Positions 4,097 to 14,261 of a DNA stretch of 24,949 nt are shown here, piece after piece. How positions within the stretch are numbered: position 1 is the stretch's first letter; every line of letters starts with the position of its first letter. Below the pieces are notes generated by a model. The model ran no database searches. It was not told where the DNA came from and saw only the letters and a program-made list of their open reading frames with translations. Origin of the DNA: a virus (lineage: Duplodnaviria; Caudoviricetes); the IMG/VR virus record IMGVR_UViG_3300046103_003027, positions 1 to 24,949 of that record, one strand, 5' to 3'. Position numbers and translations under genes: made by a program.

Positions 4097-4423
4097 TCAA
4101 AGGACATCTTTACGTTGCACACCGGGCCGCGTATGTTTTTCCTCGGGGTTAGTGTCCAGCTCCCTGTCGAGATAGTCAGTTTTCGCCAGCGCGGCTTTCT
4201 GCGTGATAATCTCTCGCATCAATCTTGAGATCTTCGGATCGTTTGCGCTGTTGCCCCATACCCATTCATCTGCATCGAAGAGATCGGATGACAACGCCGC
4301 CCGCAGTTTGTTCCGCACGGATGACAACGCCGCCCGCAGTTTGTTCCGCTCGGCCTCCGCTGCTTTAAGTGCGACCGCCAAAAACAAGGCGTCATCCTCA
4401 ACCATGGCTCGGGTCTTCCTCAT
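4097..4423 (-). CDS. Hypothetical coiled-coil protein (108 aa)
   Basis: GGAGA RBS; helical composition; contains an in-frame 11-aa duplication. Confidence 0.7.
   Translation of the reverse strand: MRKTRAMVEDDALFLAVALKAAEAERNKLRAALSSVRNKLRAALSSDLFDADEWVWGNSANDPKISRLMREIITQKAALAKTDYLDRELDTNPEEKHTRPGVQRKDVL
4285..4350. repeat. 33-bp tandem duplication (in frame)
   Basis: CGGATGACAACGCCGCCCGCAGTTTGTTCCGC(A/T) x2, encoding RNKLRAALSS twice. Confidence 0.95.
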
Positions 4424-4441
4424 CTTGATTTCTCCCGTTCG

Positions 4442-4648
4442 TCAGTCATTCCTGTTTCTCCTCGGGTTTCGCCCGCAGACCGGTGATACAGTACCTTCCC
4501 CCAACTGGACCAGTTTCGCGGCCATACGGGTGTGGTCGAGGATAAGGTTCCGGACGAGCTTTCGGGAGAGGGCCACGGTCCGCGAGCGGCCCTCCTCGGA
4601 ATCCTCACAGATTTTGCGGTACTCTTCTTCTGTTGTGTAGAGTTTCAT
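4442..4648 (-). CDS. Hypothetical protein (68 aa, MKLYTTEEEY...)
   Basis: ATGA overlap with the upstream stop at 4645-4648 supports this start over the GTG at 4669. Confidence 0.75.
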   Translation of the reverse strand: MKLYTTEEEYRKICEDSEEGRSRTVALSRKLVRNLILDHTRMAAKLVQLGEGTVSPVCGRNPRRNRND

Positions 4649-4851
4649 CCGCACAACACGCGCTTCCACGATGCCCGCAGGGTTTCTGCCTTGAGAAACA
4701 GGCCCTGCGAGGACTCGGGGCTTTCGTGTCCGGCGTCCATCAGCCGTCCGGACTCCACGTCTATCGCAAGGGATACGCAGCGCACGGCCTCTTGCCAGTC
4801 CGGAACAAGGGGTTCTTCGAGGGCGGCGTGTCGCGTGATTTGTTTAGTCAT
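4645..4851 (-). CDS. Hypothetical protein (68 aa)
   Basis: RBS AAAGGAG; first gene after a promoter; coupled to the next gene. Confidence 0.75.
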   Translation of the reverse strand: MTKQITRHAALEEPLVPDWQEAVRCVSLAIDVESGRLMDAGHESPESSQGLFLKAETLRASWKRVLCG

Positions 4852-4882
4852 AGCGGTTCATCTCCTTTGGTTAGGCAGACAG

Positions 4883-4910
4883 CCTATATTATCGCATATA
4901 ACCGCGTCAA
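4883..4910 (-). promoter_or_regulatory. Putative promoter
   Basis: TTGACG-N16-TATAGG directly after a terminator; carries phased TATGCGAT/TATAGGCT boxes. Confidence 0.55.
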
Positions 4911-4911
4911 C

Positions 4912-4959
4912 AAAAAAAGACCCCCTAACCTCGGCAAAGCGAAAATTAGAGGGTCTTTT
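4912..4959 (-). terminator. Intrinsic terminator
   Basis: GACCCTCTAA..TTAGGGGGTC stem (G-U pairs work on the minus strand) followed by T7. Confidence 0.8.
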
Positions 4960-5001
4960 CCACCAAAGGAAAACTGTCGCGACTCACCACTGAAGCGACA
5001 G
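4912..5001 (-). ncRNA. Candidate ~90-nt small RNA with an anti-Shine-Dalgarno-like seed
   Basis: Own TTGACA-N17-TAGTTT promoter, 5' hairpin (CUGUCGC/GCGACAG), middle hairpin UUUUCC-UUUGGU-GGAAAA, terminator; no ORF. Confidence 0.6.
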
Positions 5002-5006
5002 GCTTA

Positions 5007-5035
5007 AAACTACTTCGTTGCCGGGCACGTGTCAA
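5007..5035 (-). promoter_or_regulatory. Near-consensus sigma70 promoter
   Basis: TTGACA (5035-5030)-N17-TAGTTT (5012-5007). Confidence 0.75.
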
Positions 5036-5041
5036 GCGACC

Positions 5042-5200
5042 TCACCCGAAAACGCTTCCAAAAATGCCGCCTTCCTTGCATCCTTTACAGATGTACAAGG
5101 GCTTTTCCAGAAGCTTTGTCTTCTGACACTTCAAACACTTTCTGTATCGGAAGTTACCTTTTGGTGGCGGGCCTTTTTCGCATTCGGGCGCTTTAGTCAT
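5042..5200 (-). CDS. Small Zn-finger protein (52 aa)
   Basis: CLKC..CKGC; ATG at 5200 overlaps the hydrolase stop by 8 nt. Confidence 0.7.
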   Translation of the reverse strand: MTKAPECEKGPPPKGNFRYRKCLKCQKTKLLEKPLYICKGCKEGGIFGSVFG

Positions 5201-5624
5201 TGTCCCACCTGTAAAAAATGTGGTTATCAATATGCACGCTCCGCGTCCTTTTAGACGCCCAGTATGGCTGAACATAAGTGGCGTGGTAGAAGGTTGCCCC
5301 CTCCGTCACGTCCGAGCCCAGCCCGGAAAGCATCAAGCGGGCGACTGCTACCGATTCTTTAGCAGACTTGAGGCCCATGTTTAGCTCATCGCTTTTACCG
5401 TCGCAATAGAAGCTAAACTGGCATTTGTTTCTTACGGGTATGCCGGGACGGTGTGTATACACAGGGCCCTGCCGTACCACGGCACAGACGTCGTTCGGGA
5501 AGCGCGGGTCGAGTGTTCTGTTTATTACGACAGATGCGACCGCAACTTTACCAATAAAGGGCTCTCCCCGTGCCTCGAAAAAGATCGCTTGGGCAAGGCA
5601 CATGAGTGCGGCGGACAGAATCAC
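5193..5624 (-). CDS. SleB/CwlJ-like cell wall hydrolase (Hydrolase_2 family)
   Basis: CLAQAIFFEARGE (catalytic Glu), AVASVVINR, CQFSFYCDG, GATFYHA..V.PYW, IDNHIFY; GTG start. Confidence 0.95.
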   Translation of the reverse strand: MILSAALMCLAQAIFFEARGEPFIGKVAVASVVINRTLDPRFPNDVCAVVRQGPVYTHRPGIPVRNKCQFSFYCDGKSDELNMGLKSAKESVAVARLMLSGLGSDVTEGATFYHATYVQPYWASKRTRSVHIDNHIFYRWDND

Positions 5625-11256: not shown

Positions 11257-11270
11257 GTCATTCCTTTGGC

Positions 11271-11297
11271 AGAAAGAGGGGCGGCAACCGCCGCCCC
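11271..11297 (-). terminator. Probable leaky terminator between the SSB and primase genes
   Basis: GGGGCGGC-N4-GCCGCCCC followed by an imperfect TCTTTCT tail. Confidence 0.65.
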
Positions 11298-11304
11298 AAA
11301 GGTA

Positions 11305-12120
11305 TCAAAACGGGATGTTGTCGTCCAACCGGCCCATGCCAGCGCCAGCGCCAGCGCCCACGCCAGCGCCTTCACCCTCGTGCTTTACGACAATGTCTCC
11401 GGCCATGATGGTGTCATGGAAGTCCTTAGCCCGCCGGAAAAGCTCTTCCGAGGCCACCATCTCTTCGCGAGAAACGTCCCAACCGTGCCAAGAACCCTTG
11501 GAGTTTTCTTCGGAATGTGTCTTCAACAGGTAGACGTGGGAGAAGCGAGGAGGAGTGAAAACATTCCCATTAGGGCCCCGCAACTGAACAGCGGCAACCA
11601 TGGAGTTCCACTTCCGGGACTTCTTTAACTGGGTCGATTTCATCGCAATCAACGCCGGTTCCGCTCCACCTTCTTCGGTCAGGAGAACAACGAAATGCTG
11701 GTGCGTCTCCTCGATGTAGTCACCTTCTCCGCCGACCACGTATTCCTTGTTGTCTTCCGAGGAGCGTTCCGTCTTCGGCATCACGTCCGAGGTAGAGTAC
11801 ACGTTCAGGGGTGCGCCGCTTCCGGAGCCGCGAGGAGCCCACTGAATAAACTTCTTCTGATAGGCGCACGGGATTACGCGTACGCCATCTTTACCTTTGT
11901 AAATCTGACCCGTGACGGTGTTGTAAATGTCGCCCTTGCGGGCATCTTCCCTGTCGTCCAAAATCGGGTCAAGCCCCGACAGGATTTTCAGGAACGGCAG
12001 GGCAAGATCGTCCTGCGTCAGGTTCTCAAGCCCCTCCGAAGAGGCTGCTTCAAACATTGAAAGAAGCGCGTCTACCGGGGCAACCTCGTTCTTCTTCTTT
12101 TCTGCAACTGCGTTAGCCAT
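11305..12120 (-). CDS. Putative phage single-stranded DNA-binding protein (271 aa)
   Basis: C-terminal DDNIPF tail after a Gly/Ala linker; DLALPFLKIL and NSKGSWHGW segments typical of phage SSB-like proteins; next to the primase. Confidence 0.75.
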   Translation of the reverse strand: MANAVAEKKKNEVAPVDALLSMFEAASSEGLENLTQDDLALPFLKILSGLDPILDDREDARKGDIYNTVTGQIYKGKDGVRVIPCAYQKKFIQWAPRGSGSGAPLNVYSTSDVMPKTERSSEDNKEYVVGGEGDYIEETHQHFVVLLTEEGGAEPALIAMKSTQLKKSRKWNSMVAAVQLRGPNGNVFTPPRFSHVYLLKTHSEENSKGSWHGWDVSREEMVASEELFRRAKDFHDTIMAGDIVVKHEGEGAGVGAGAGAGMGRLDDNIPF

Positions 12121-12122
12121 AA

Positions 12123-12716
12123 TTATTTAACTCCTTTGGGTTTTGAAATGGTGGCTCGTTGTCCGACCCATGCGCCAAAAAGCTCCATAGGAAAGTCGTC
12201 GCCAGCTTCGACGCGTTCTTTCACGAACGCGCGGAGGGTTGACGGGTGGACCTCTGTTTTCGCCTCGGCGCAGTAGCCGCTGCTTTCTGCTAGCTCGTAA
12301 AACTCACGAGCATCTTCGTCTTCGTCGCGCCCGAACGTACAGGAAACAGTGTTCTTGATGAGATCCCCGTAGCCGTGGTCGCGTAGCCATTGGTGAACTT
12401 GCGGTCGGTTTGCGACCAGCGGCGTTGCTGAGTACGTCTCCCGGACCATTAGCTCGCTACCGTCTTCCATCTTAAACGACTGCAAGCCCAGCTCCGAAAA
12501 CAGCGTAGGCATGACGTCATCCGTCAACCGGCGCATTTCTGTTTCGGCCTGTTTGAGAGCTTCTTTTGCCATTCCGACTTCCTGCTCTTGGAGCCGAATC
12601 TGGCGGGCGGTGTCCGCTACACTCGAAAGTGCGTTCTGGCCTATGCCTTCGACACCGCTTGCTGCGGTCTTTTCATGTTCATCTTCGAGAACGCGTAACA
12701 TATTAAAATCGTTCAT
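12123..12716 (-). CDS. Conserved phage replication-module protein (coiled coil plus globular domain)
   Basis: WLRDHGYGDLIK..VHPSTLRAFVKE pattern, often found upstream of phage SSB genes. ATG 12716 has an AGGAAG RBS (the track uses TTG 12722). Confidence 0.85.
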   Translation of the reverse strand: MNDFNMLRVLEDEHEKTAASGVEGIGQNALSSVADTARQIRLQEQEVGMAKEALKQAETEMRRLTDDVMPTLFSELGLQSFKMEDGSELMVRETYSATPLVANRPQVHQWLRDHGYGDLIKNTVSCTFGRDEDEDAREFYELAESSGYCAEAKTEVHPSTLRAFVKERVEAGDDFPMELFGAWVGQRATISKPKGVK

Positions 12717-12812: not shown

Positions 12813-14261
12813 ATGGAAAATTACGCCTTCAAAACGGAGCCCTTCGACCACCAGTGCGTAGCGCTAGACGCCTCATGGTCGAAGCCGTACCACGCGCTGT
12901 TTATGGAAATGGGCACGGGTAAGTCAAAAGTCATTGTCGATACGATAGGCAAGCTGTTTGAGTCTGGAGAAATCAACGCGGCACTCGTGGTAGCCCCGAA
13001 AGGCGTTTACGACAACTGGTTGCGGAAAGAGATTCCGCAGCATCTGCCCGACCGCATACAGCGGAAGATGGTTCGCTGGGTTCCGGACAAGACAAAGAAG
13101 TTCGAGGAGGAGCTTTACGACTTGGTGATGAACCCTTACGAAGGCCTCAAGCTTTTTGTTGTGAACATAGAAGCCTTCAGCTCGGGCCGTGGGGCGCAGG
13201 CCGCGTACGCCTTTTTAGAGCAGAACCCGGACAATATGATGGTGGTCGATGAGTCCACTACTATTAAAAACCGGAAGGCGATGCGTACAAAGAATGTTGT
13301 TCAGGCTCGGGACATTGCGAAGTACCGCCGTATCTTGACGGGTACCCCCATCACGAAAAGCCCAATGGACCTTTTTTCGCAGTGTAATTTCCTGAGCCCA
13401 AAGGCCTTGGGCGGTGACAGCTTTTTTGCTTTCAAGAACCGGTACGCGATAATCCAGCGGCGATCCATGGGTCACCGCTCGTTTCAGGAGATTGTCGGAT
13501 ACCGGCGCTTAGAAGAACTTACAGAAAAACTGGAGGATTTTTCGAGCCGTGTTTTGAAGGTCGATTGCCTTGACCTCCCAGAGAAGCTCTTTATCCGCCG
13601 GGATGTCGCGCTGACGACGGAACAGGAGGGTGTATACAATCAAATGAAGAAACTCGCTCTGGCCGTTTTAGAGAACGGGAACAAGGCGACGACACAGAGT
13701 GTCTTAACACAGCTTATGCGTCTGCAACAGATCTGTTGCGGGTTTTTCCAACCCGACGAGAAGCCTTTGGAGGAGATCAAAAGCAACCGCCTTACAGAGC
13801 TTATGGAGGTTTTGGAAGATGTTCGCGGCAAGGCCATCGTCTGGGCGACCTTTACACATAGCCTGAAACAGATTGAGCGCGAAATAACCGCGGTCTACGG
13901 TCCGCGTTCCGTGGCGTCCTACTTTGGGGAAACCAGACAGGAAGATCGTCAGGACATTGTTACGCGGTTCCAAGACCCGGACGATCCCCTGCGGTTTTTC
14001 GTCGGCCAGCCGCGGACCGGGGGCTACGGGATCACTCTGACGGAGGCGACGACAGTGGTGTACTTCTCCAACAGCTACGATCTGGAGATTCGACTGCAAT
14101 CCGAGGACCGCGCACATCGGATTGGGCAGAAGAAGGCCGTGACCTATGTTGATCTTGTGTCAAAGGGCACTATTGACGAGAAGATACTAAATGCCCTTTA
14201 CGACAAAAACGTGCTGGCTGGGAAGGTTCTTGGCGAAGAGGTGAGGAACTGGCTAGCGTAA
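12813..14261 (+). CDS. SNF2-family (SF2) helicase/ATPase (482 aa)
   Basis: MEMGTGKS, VVAPK, VVDEST, LTGTP, LMRLQQI, GGYGITLT, QSEDRAHRIGQ. Confidence 0.96.
   Translation: MENYAFKTEPFDHQCVALDASWSKPYHALFMEMGTGKSKVIVDTIGKLFESGEINAALVVAPKGVYDNWLRKEIPQHLPDRIQRKMVRWVPDKTKKFEEELYDLVMNPYEGLKLFVVNIEAFSSGRGAQAAYAFLEQNPDNMMVVDESTTIKNRKAMRTKNVVQARDIAKYRRILTGTPITKSPMDLFSQCNFLSPKALGGDSFFAFKNRYAIIQRRSMGHRSFQEIVGYRRLEELTEKLEDFSSRVLKVDCLDLPEKLFIRRDVALTTEQEGVYNQMKKLALAVLENGNKATTQSVLTQLMRLQQICCGFFQPDEKPLEEIKSNRLTELMEVLEDVRGKAIVWATFTHSLKQIEREITAVYGPRSVASYFGETRQEDRQDIVTRFQDPDDPLRFFVGQPRTGGYGITLTEATTVVYFSNSYDLEIRLQSEDRAHRIGQKKAVTYVDLVSKGTIDEKILNALYDKNVLAGKVLGEEVRNWLA

Follow-up and report, generated by a model that had tools for sequence, protein, structure and literature searches.

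Positions 4912-5035 of the stretch of phage DNA analysed here (the window: IMG/VR virus record IMGVR_UViG_3300046103_003027, 24,949 bases, estimated completeness 43%) lie between two small genes on the minus strand, which bears nearly all of the genes of the window. An earlier note on this DNA had proposed that the interval encodes a small RNA (sRNA) whose seed is complementary to the ribosome-binding sites (RBSs) of the phage's own early and replication genes, and which would act in trans by pairing with their Shine-Dalgarno (SD) sequences.

Reading along the minus strand, the upstream gene is an open reading frame (ORF) for a 52-aa Zn-ribbon protein (5042-5200, TGA at 5044-5042), the start of which was placed at the ATG at 5200 because an AGGTGG precedes it. 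Beyond it lies a candidate promoter, P1, with the -35 hexamer TTGACA at 5030-5035, a 17-nt spacer and the -10 hexamer TAGTTT at 5007-5012, and then a stretch free of ORFs that ends in a predicted intrinsic terminator (4912-4956), a GC-rich hairpin with its stem at 4956-4918 whose 3' arm runs into seven T residues (U7 in the RNA; 4918-4912). Every coordinate given in the earlier note for the promoter, the ORF-free stretch and the terminator was confirmed. With its start placed from the -10 box and its end at the end of the U-run, the predicted RNA would be about 85-89 nt long (4912-5000), and it would consist of a 5' hairpin, H1 (4975-5000; 10 pairs in the minimum free energy (MFE) structure), an 18-nt linker carrying the anti-SD seed GUUUUCCUUUGGUGGAAA (4957-4974) and the terminator hairpin. 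The segment originally singled out as the seed, AGUUUUCCUUUGGU (4975-4962), is contained in this linker region. One base past the U-run begins a second putative promoter, P2 (4883-4910), with TTGACG at 4910-4905, a 16-nt spacer that includes TATGCGA, and TATAGG at 4888-4883; the spacer motif is unique in the window except for one match with a single mismatch. A short leader with an SD sequence follows P2 and leads into a 68-aa gene (4645-4851, ATG at 4851). Nothing terminates transcription between the Zn-ribbon ORF and this promoter-to-terminator unit (hereafter the cassette), so that the upstream mRNA would also have the cassette sequence as its 3' end.

The 93-nt minus-strand RNA folded at -39.1 kcal/mol (z -4.57), and 0 of 200 shuffled sequences folded as well. 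The plus-strand fold was weaker (-32.2 kcal/mol), in agreement with the claim that the G-U pairs favour the minus strand. The three hairpins described previously are all predicted in the window, where the linker is partly closed by a weak 5-bp hairpin, but this middle hairpin is not a feature of the family, as three domains were present in only 6 of 18 members. Nor can P1 be called the best sigma70 promoter in the window, since the bare skeleton (-35, 17-nt spacer, -10) matched four times against 2.37 expected; its -10 box agrees with the consensus at 3 of 6 positions. The search of Rfam that had been suggested brought no family to its threshold: Rfam 15, including the C4 antisense RNA, gave no match at gathering score over the whole window, and at E-values up to 10 over 4600-5400 the only matches on the unit, Srn266 (18.6 bits, threshold 63) and ncS025 (14.4 bits, threshold 46), were unusable. 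With regard to a possible dependence on Hfq, what the sequence shows is the terminator and U-tail.

The cassette is conserved well beyond the window. A profile search found full-length copies in 22 of 80 related viral loci that had been fetched via the hydrolase gene, and partial or diverged copies in 7 more. Among 29 loci fetched via the downstream gene (a gene of about 60 codons in the family), the cassette stood directly upstream of this gene in 13, a partial match lay 0.5-1.1 kb upstream in 6, and 10 had no match. In the nine cassette-free loci inspected (L241-L245, L247, L248, L252 and L253) only a few bases separate the start of the ~60-aa gene from the point where the hydrolase gene ends. 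Because 10 of these 29 loci have no match, the cassette is accessory and not essential. Where it is present, the TTGAC of the -35 hexamer, the exact 17-nt spacing and the A2 and T6 of the -10 hexamer were invariant in all 16 aligned copies, over a spacer whose sequence identity averaged 0.32 (8 lineage representatives). These are the -35 and -10 positions that a sigma70-type promoter needs most, and it is this conservation, not the rarity of the skeleton, that supports the assignment of P1 as a probable promoter. In each copy the 5' hairpin begins about 6-7 nt past the -10 box, where the transcript would be expected to start.

The 5' and terminator hairpins appeared in the MFE folds of 18 of 18 family members (12-19 pairs in the terminal hairpin), and in 17 of 18 the seed lay between the two, in an unpaired linker of 10-23 nt. 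The sequences of the 5' hairpins differ by lineage (mean pairwise identity 0.43, mean z -3.2 compared with shuffles), and in 11 of the 13 tested 3% or less of the shuffles folded as well, although this test is biased by having taken the segments from the MFE structures. In the terminator, RNAalifold on transcript alignment A3 kept seven pairs, four of them with compensatory changes. The MAFFT alignments (A3 and A4) left the 5' hairpins out of register, and no pairs were recovered there. A conserved coding frame over the RNA was also considered and rejected, since the longest open frames were 30 and 37 codons in L024 and 40-46 codons in L046, and no frame was common to all copies.

A second promoter, at the position of P2, follows the terminator in every copy. 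Its spacer motif was tried as a marker of the family and rejected, as it turned up in many marine viral contigs that are AT-rich and unrelated. There the motif (TTGAC, 6-8 nt, TATGSGA, 3 nt, TATA) heads genes in contigs that have no cassette (loci L083-L204; an estimated 230 stretches), and it looks like a feature of host-type promoters rather than a family mark.

The five sites of complementarity to the seed that had been claimed in the window (4863-4871, 11261-11269, 12132-12139, 1763-1772 and 1800-1809) were all found in place on the minus strand, and two of them proved longer than had been counted. Before the 68-aa gene, ACCAAAGGAGA (4861-4871) forms 11 bp with the seed, one of them G-U (duplex energy, E, -16.6; rank 3 of 24 start regions). 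The site before the AEP-type primase gene (ATG 11256) extends over 11261-11275, with 15 bp (11275-11261) including two G-U pairs (E -21.1, rank 1 of 24; -22.8 in a whole-strand scan). At a 109-aa Zn-ribbon gene (ATG 1759), the site at 1763-1780 pairs over 13+4 bp (1780-1763) with position 1776 bulged, at -24.4 the best of the whole minus strand, and a second site in the leader of the same gene, CAAAGGAAAA (1800-1809), is likewise complementary to the seed. The remaining site, CCAAAGGA (12132-12139; E -13.6, rank 5 of 24), precedes the gene with its ATG at 12120; the label of single-stranded DNA-binding protein (SSB) given to this gene is not supported, since by Pfam it is Pam3 gp34-like and no recognised SSB.

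When the linker was compared with all 26-mers of the minus strand (mean -8.6, standard deviation 2.7 kcal/mol), the two best duplexes (-24.4 and -22.8 kcal/mol) were formed with gene 1759 and the primase gene, each in its start region, and the start region of the neighbouring 68-aa gene ranked about 24th. Against the 24 SD-bearing start regions of the window, 0 of 300 shuffled linkers that kept the TCC core reached the observed best, top-three or mean energy. In the nearest relative (50 kb, scanned at a coarser step) the three best duplexes fell at the genes for the primase and the DNA polymerase and at the neighbouring gene, in each case in the start region, and so the primase site is also present there. 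Gene 1759 is itself preceded on the minus strand by a P2-type promoter (TTGACG at 1851-1846, an 18-nt spacer and TATAGA at 1827-1822), with two hairpin-forming inverted repeats upstream of it (about 1894-1851); a leader transcribed from this promoter would bear both of the seed-complementary sites of the gene (1809-1800 and 1780-1763).

Whole contigs were compared for 15 family members, six large contigs and nine further ones. The three best sites beat shuffles that kept the TCC core in 6 of 6 large contigs (p 0-0.01) and in 7 of the 9 further contigs (p ≤0.04). Thus the control with shuffled seeds that the earlier note had called for showed that start regions of the same phage fit the linker better than they fit core-preserving shuffles of it. 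The linkers were then permuted among lineages, with one representative for each of seven lineages, and only 1 of 5040 permutations attained the fit of seeds to their own genomes. When the start region of the neighbour was left out, the numbers were 1, 5 and 27 of 5040 in three sets of representatives.

This co-variation could be seen in the sequences themselves, as several genes in each lineage carry an extension of the SD (a tag) that mirrors the linker of that lineage. The tag is CCAAAGGA(A) in the lineage of the window, AACCA(C/T)GGAGA in the second lineage, TTAACAATGGAGAA in the third (with one perfect match of 15 bp), CCTCAACAACC..TGGAGA in the fourth (E -28.4) and CTA(C/T)GGGAAG in the fifth. 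Same-strand copies of the tag were at start regions in 4 of 5 cases in the window, 4 of 7 in G001, 3 of 5 in G002, 6 of 8 in G003, 5 of 5 in G004 and 3 of 3 in G005, and copies on the opposite strand numbered 1-4; the tags on which these counts are based are short (8-12 nt), and their patterns were chosen after the matches had been seen. Together, the permutations and the tags bear out the expectation that seed and targets would be conserved jointly, in that the linker co-varies with start-region motifs specific to the lineage. Nature has thereby supplied ready-made compensatory mutants, for which CCAAAGGA/UCCUUUGG and CCACGGAG/CUCCGUGG are natural lineage pairs for a swap.

The gene adjoining the cassette follows the same pattern. 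Its SD region complements the linker in most lineages, and the match shifts with the lineage: in the window UUUCCUUUGGU stands against ACCAAAGGAGA, and in other lineages the corresponding pairs are UCUCCgUGGUUG/UAACCAaGGAGA, GUUCUCCUUG/CAAGGAGAAC and UUCCCGU/ACGGGAG. Overall, the neighbouring start region was favoured over the remaining SD-like sites of its locus (Fisher p 3.4e-4, 11 lineage representatives). An RNAduplex cross-matrix of linkers against neighbouring start regions alone was noisy and had no clear diagonal, and a test for gapless helices reached significance in the window, L016 and L006 but in no other case.

Targets were ranked by clustering the proteins across contigs and ranking the orthologues within their own genomes in six lineages. 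The ~60-aa gene beside the cassette was among the top five of its genome in 5 of 6 lineages and the DNA polymerase gene in 3 of 6; several small or uncharacterised genes also recurred as high-ranking targets, and the primase gene ranked first only in the lineage of the window. The idea that replication genes are the general targets was therefore not upheld, as the primase is a strong target only in the lineage of the window and the recurrent one is the ~60-aa neighbour. This gene, immediately downstream and with its own putative promoter P2, is the most conserved predicted target. It would be the core target, to which each lineage has added others, in the case of the window the primase gene, the Zn-ribbon gene 1759 and the gp34-like gene. 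Most of the predicted targets received no function from Pfam or PHROGs. For the 68-aa protein there was no family in either of these databases and no usable match in the ESM Atlas; its model is a two-helix hairpin with a predicted local distance difference test (pLDDT) score of 80.9, which is too simple for a meaningful fold search.

The identity of the gene behind P2 is not constant. In one lineage (L008:3627, L010:3630 and L012:3653) the first frame after P2 is a conserved micro-ORF of 20-21 codons, MMGDLLVQIFIEGFLRGVLGV-like, which replaces the ~60-aa gene. In a diverged member (L021, from position 2546 onward) an ORF of another kind, of 333 aa, follows the cassette promoter and SD, and its SD region is the same as that of the sister contigs L043 and L046, where a 49-aa gene sits. 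As the same SD region stands before different genes, the piece comprising promoter, leader and SD travels with the cassette and not with the gene.

The stretch is present in public seawater and sea-ice metagenome runs. Five RNA runs share words with it, and the contigs of four metatranscriptomes were compared. These contigs (depth 2-4.5) matched the flanks of the cassette only, at 5028-5235, 5100-5246, 4551-4701, 4712-4862 and 4472-4763, and left 4863-5027 uncovered, a result that is uninformative for an RNA of less than 100 nt. Contigs from seawater and aquatic metatranscriptomes are at least 99% identical to the region of the 68-aa gene (4472-4862) and to the Zn-ribbon/hydrolase region (5028-5246). 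Natural RNA libraries thus hold sequence of this phage, although carry-over of DNA is possible.

The unit at 4912-5035 is therefore a cassette with a defined anatomy, conserved in uncultured marine relatives, whose linker is complementary to several start regions of the same genome and co-varies with their tags. We consider it probable (about 0.62) that it is a conserved promoter-to-terminator cassette for an 85-89-nt trans-acting anti-SD sRNA, which is likely to lower the translation of the phage's own tagged mRNAs. Of the original proposal, action in trans against SD sequences gains support from comparison (a self-contained unit, an exposed seed and co-variation with the RBSs), whereas repression, a timing switch and carrier-state control are inferred. 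The host polymerase would transcribe the RNA from P1 and stop at the U-run, and the unpaired middle of the RNA would pair in the cell with the SD and the flanks of tagged mRNAs. Such pairing would occlude the 30S binding site, perhaps with decay of the mRNA thereafter, and so give repression, by which the level or the timing of the tagged genes would be set. An effect in cis on read-through transcripts may add to the effect in trans.

Several observations weigh against this reading. The -10 box of P1 is weak, and a simple promoter/terminator scan called neither P1 nor the terminator, because the -10 has only 3 of 6 consensus positions and the hairpin loop is beyond the limit of the scan. The cassette is dispensable, with no match in 10 of the 29 loci that have the ~60-aa gene, and support for the hairpins comes from MFE folds, shuffles and RNAalifold. 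The SD-bearing start regions were supplied by a crude custom gene caller that prefers SD-bearing starts. All of the seeds have the anti-SD core in common, so that part of the shuffle signal reflects a longer SD complement and not the private flanks, and this common core is controlled for only by the cross-lineage tests; the lineages are related in turn, and the p-values therefore overstate their independence and are indicative rather than exact. No enrichment was found in G012 and G013, which have the smallest sets (7 and 15 start regions), and the neighbouring gene did no better than other SD-like sites in L007 (p 0.86), L012 (p 0.60) and L017 (p 0.54). The gap over the cassette on the transcript side has to be counted here as well.

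Some of these points would be expected if the locus were only an operon junction, in which the hairpin and U-run end the upstream genes, P2 starts the next, and P1 and the seed fit are by-products of an SD-like, pyrimidine-rich 3' untranslated region (UTR). A weak -10 box that the scan does not call, a bare promoter skeleton that is not rare, relatives without a cassette, metatranscriptome contigs of depth 2-4.5 that show flanks and no RNA, and the finding of P2-type promoters, spacer motif included, in many marine viral contigs unrelated to these phages all speak for this view. However, a bare terminator needs neither a 5' hairpin nor a conserved unpaired linker, and here every lineage has a hairpin where the transcript is predicted to start, the -35, its exact distance to the -10 and two -10 positions are invariant over a diverged spacer, and the fit of the seed to its own lineage was reached by a single permutation in 5040. 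We therefore regard a mere junction as very improbable, the least probable of the alternatives. Control purely in cis, with the cassette as an attenuator of the 4851 gene as the earlier note had suggested for an alternative, is scarcely more probable. In that case transcripts that started at P1 or in the upstream genes and escaped the terminator would carry the linker, which would pair back onto the SD of the 68-aa gene and silence it; transcripts from P2 without the linker would be translated, and there would be no free RNA. The absence of a terminator between the upstream ORF and the cassette would allow such transcripts, complementarity of the linker to the adjoining start region is seen in most lineages, with the significance given above, and the gene in question is the most conserved predicted target. 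In every copy, however, a strong U7 terminator and a full promoter separate the linker from that SD, and distant start regions fit equally well or better, the two best in the window lying 3.2 kb downstream and 6.3 kb upstream. Moreover, leaving out the neighbour did not abolish the co-variation of the distant sites with the seed, and an effect in cis cannot account for these sites.

A further view accepts a real sRNA but gives it another main job, such as acting on mRNAs of the host, titrating ribosomes or an RNA-binding protein, or activating or protecting the tagged mRNAs. Conservation in the family shows that the RNA matters and says nothing of its role, the sign of its effect is inferred, and the comparison covered phage start regions. 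Against this, the seed tracks SD extensions that are private to the phage, which points to phage mRNAs as the partners, and pairing over the SD itself usually blocks initiation, as with other SD-occluding sRNAs. We judge another main job to be unlikely, if somewhat less so than control purely in cis, and return below to the trans-acting anti-SD sRNA as the preferred reading.

The rest of the window is organised as follows. The replication and other genes, mostly on the minus strand, encode Pam3 gp33-like and gp34-like proteins, the AEP-type primase, a UvrD-type helicase and a family A DNA polymerase; these genes are followed by small ORFs, a cell-wall hydrolase gene (5193-5624) and further small genes. 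The only clear gene on the plus strand encodes an SNF2-type helicase (12813-14261) and separates the lysis/structural block from that of replication. Judged by the DNA polymerase, the named phages closest to the window, at 48-56% identity, are DSL-LC04, 023Pt_psg01 and the pelagiphages HTVC023P and HTVC027P. A blastn search with 4400-5500 against 50,697 phage records gave no match, and the cassette was not found in DSL-LC04, 023Pt_psg01 or HTVC023P (51-56% identity in the DNA polymerase) in the ~11.8 kb examined per genome, in which the largest intergenic gaps were inspected by eye (DSL-LC04 and 023Pt_psg01) and an nhmmer profile was run on all three loci. In G003, the contig of L020 (58,115 bases, 100% complete by CheckV), the same 28-mer with its flank occurs near both ends (oriented positions 691 and 58018), which suggests a terminal repeat or a circularly permuted assembly.

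Phages of the HTVC023P type have been called widespread in their genome paper (PMC9599517), and the cassette occurs in relatives of these phages. The main text of that paper mentions none of the terms promoter, terminator, sRNA, small RNA and intergenic. Known phage sRNAs, according to a review (PMC12197685), are mostly single-target antisense RNAs of temperate phages or regulators directed at the host. If the cassette acts as we propose, a single RNA would regulate an entire group of genes of its own phage by way of a private ribosome-binding tag; no phage sRNA with a private multi-gene RBS tag was found in the literature searched, with subscription journals and supplements outside its scope.

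The closest precedent in arrangement comes from phages P1 and P7, whose c4 RNA is cut from the transcript of its operon and is not known to act beyond that operon, with two seed segments for two sites downstream. In the review, c4 (immI operon) is described as an RNA of about 80 nt that lies upstream of its target on the same strand, masks the downstream RBS and differs in specificity between related phages (PMC12197685). The predicted RNA of the window resembles it in lying upstream on the same strand, in its complementarity around the RBS of the next gene and in a seed that is specific to the lineage. It differs in that the cassette comes with its own promoter and terminator signals, which argue for a separate transcript and not for excision of the c4 type, in that distant genes are also tagged, and in the absence of an Rfam match to c4. 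The constitutive promoter, short transcript and strong terminator before the next gene block are also found with the short terminated leader RNAs that follow lambdoid late promoters (lambda 6S RNA and StxS), where the same transcript reaches the downstream genes by antitermination; the cassette differs from these in the second conserved promoter that follows its terminator in every copy. T4 RegA occupies the initiation regions of many phage mRNAs and so shuts down their translation. RegA is a protein, and the cassette would provide an RNA counterpart with specificity by base pairing. Like the candidate RNA, VpdS of vibriophage VP882, which affects the levels of phage and host mRNAs, and PreS of lambda, another trans-acting phage sRNA, are base-pairing RNAs encoded by phages (described in the same review, PMC12197685). 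As portrayed there they are bound by Hfq, belong to temperate phages and have roles directed at the host, and they have no relation to the candidate by sequence or Rfam; the review text describes no private RBS tag shared by many phage genes for either of them.

The tags have their nearest parallel in the start-associated sequences (SAS, with the related ESAS) of the Cluster K mycobacteriophages. As reported by Pope et al. (2011; PMC3203893), these extend the SD core in a way private to the phages and stand a few bases ahead of the start codons of a subset of non-structural genes, almost always in one orientation and kept across the subclusters. Four of the Cluster K genomes have a single copy of SAS on the other strand, and the authors left open whether the reader is an RNA or a protein (PMC3203893). 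The tags described here likewise embed the SD in a private sequence before several starts in one orientation, with the proviso that their patterns were defined post hoc. They differ in form, as SAS is a near-invariant 13-bp sequence with no named partner in that account, whereas the cassette tags are 8-12 nt, looser and accompanied by a candidate partner RNA; the SAS phages and their hosts are unrelated to those of the cassette. Tentatively, and as a view that we hold to be rather unlikely as a whole, such phages might run private translation codes, in which a lineage-specific SD-extension tag and one co-evolving reader RNA form a lineage-specific master switch, possibly also a c4-like weapon that silences superinfecting relatives with the same tag and thereby drives the divergence of the seeds. 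If this were true, the same logic would also explain orphan start-associated sequences such as SAS. The cassette also offers a concrete and testable type of candidate partner for start-associated sequences (PMC3203893).

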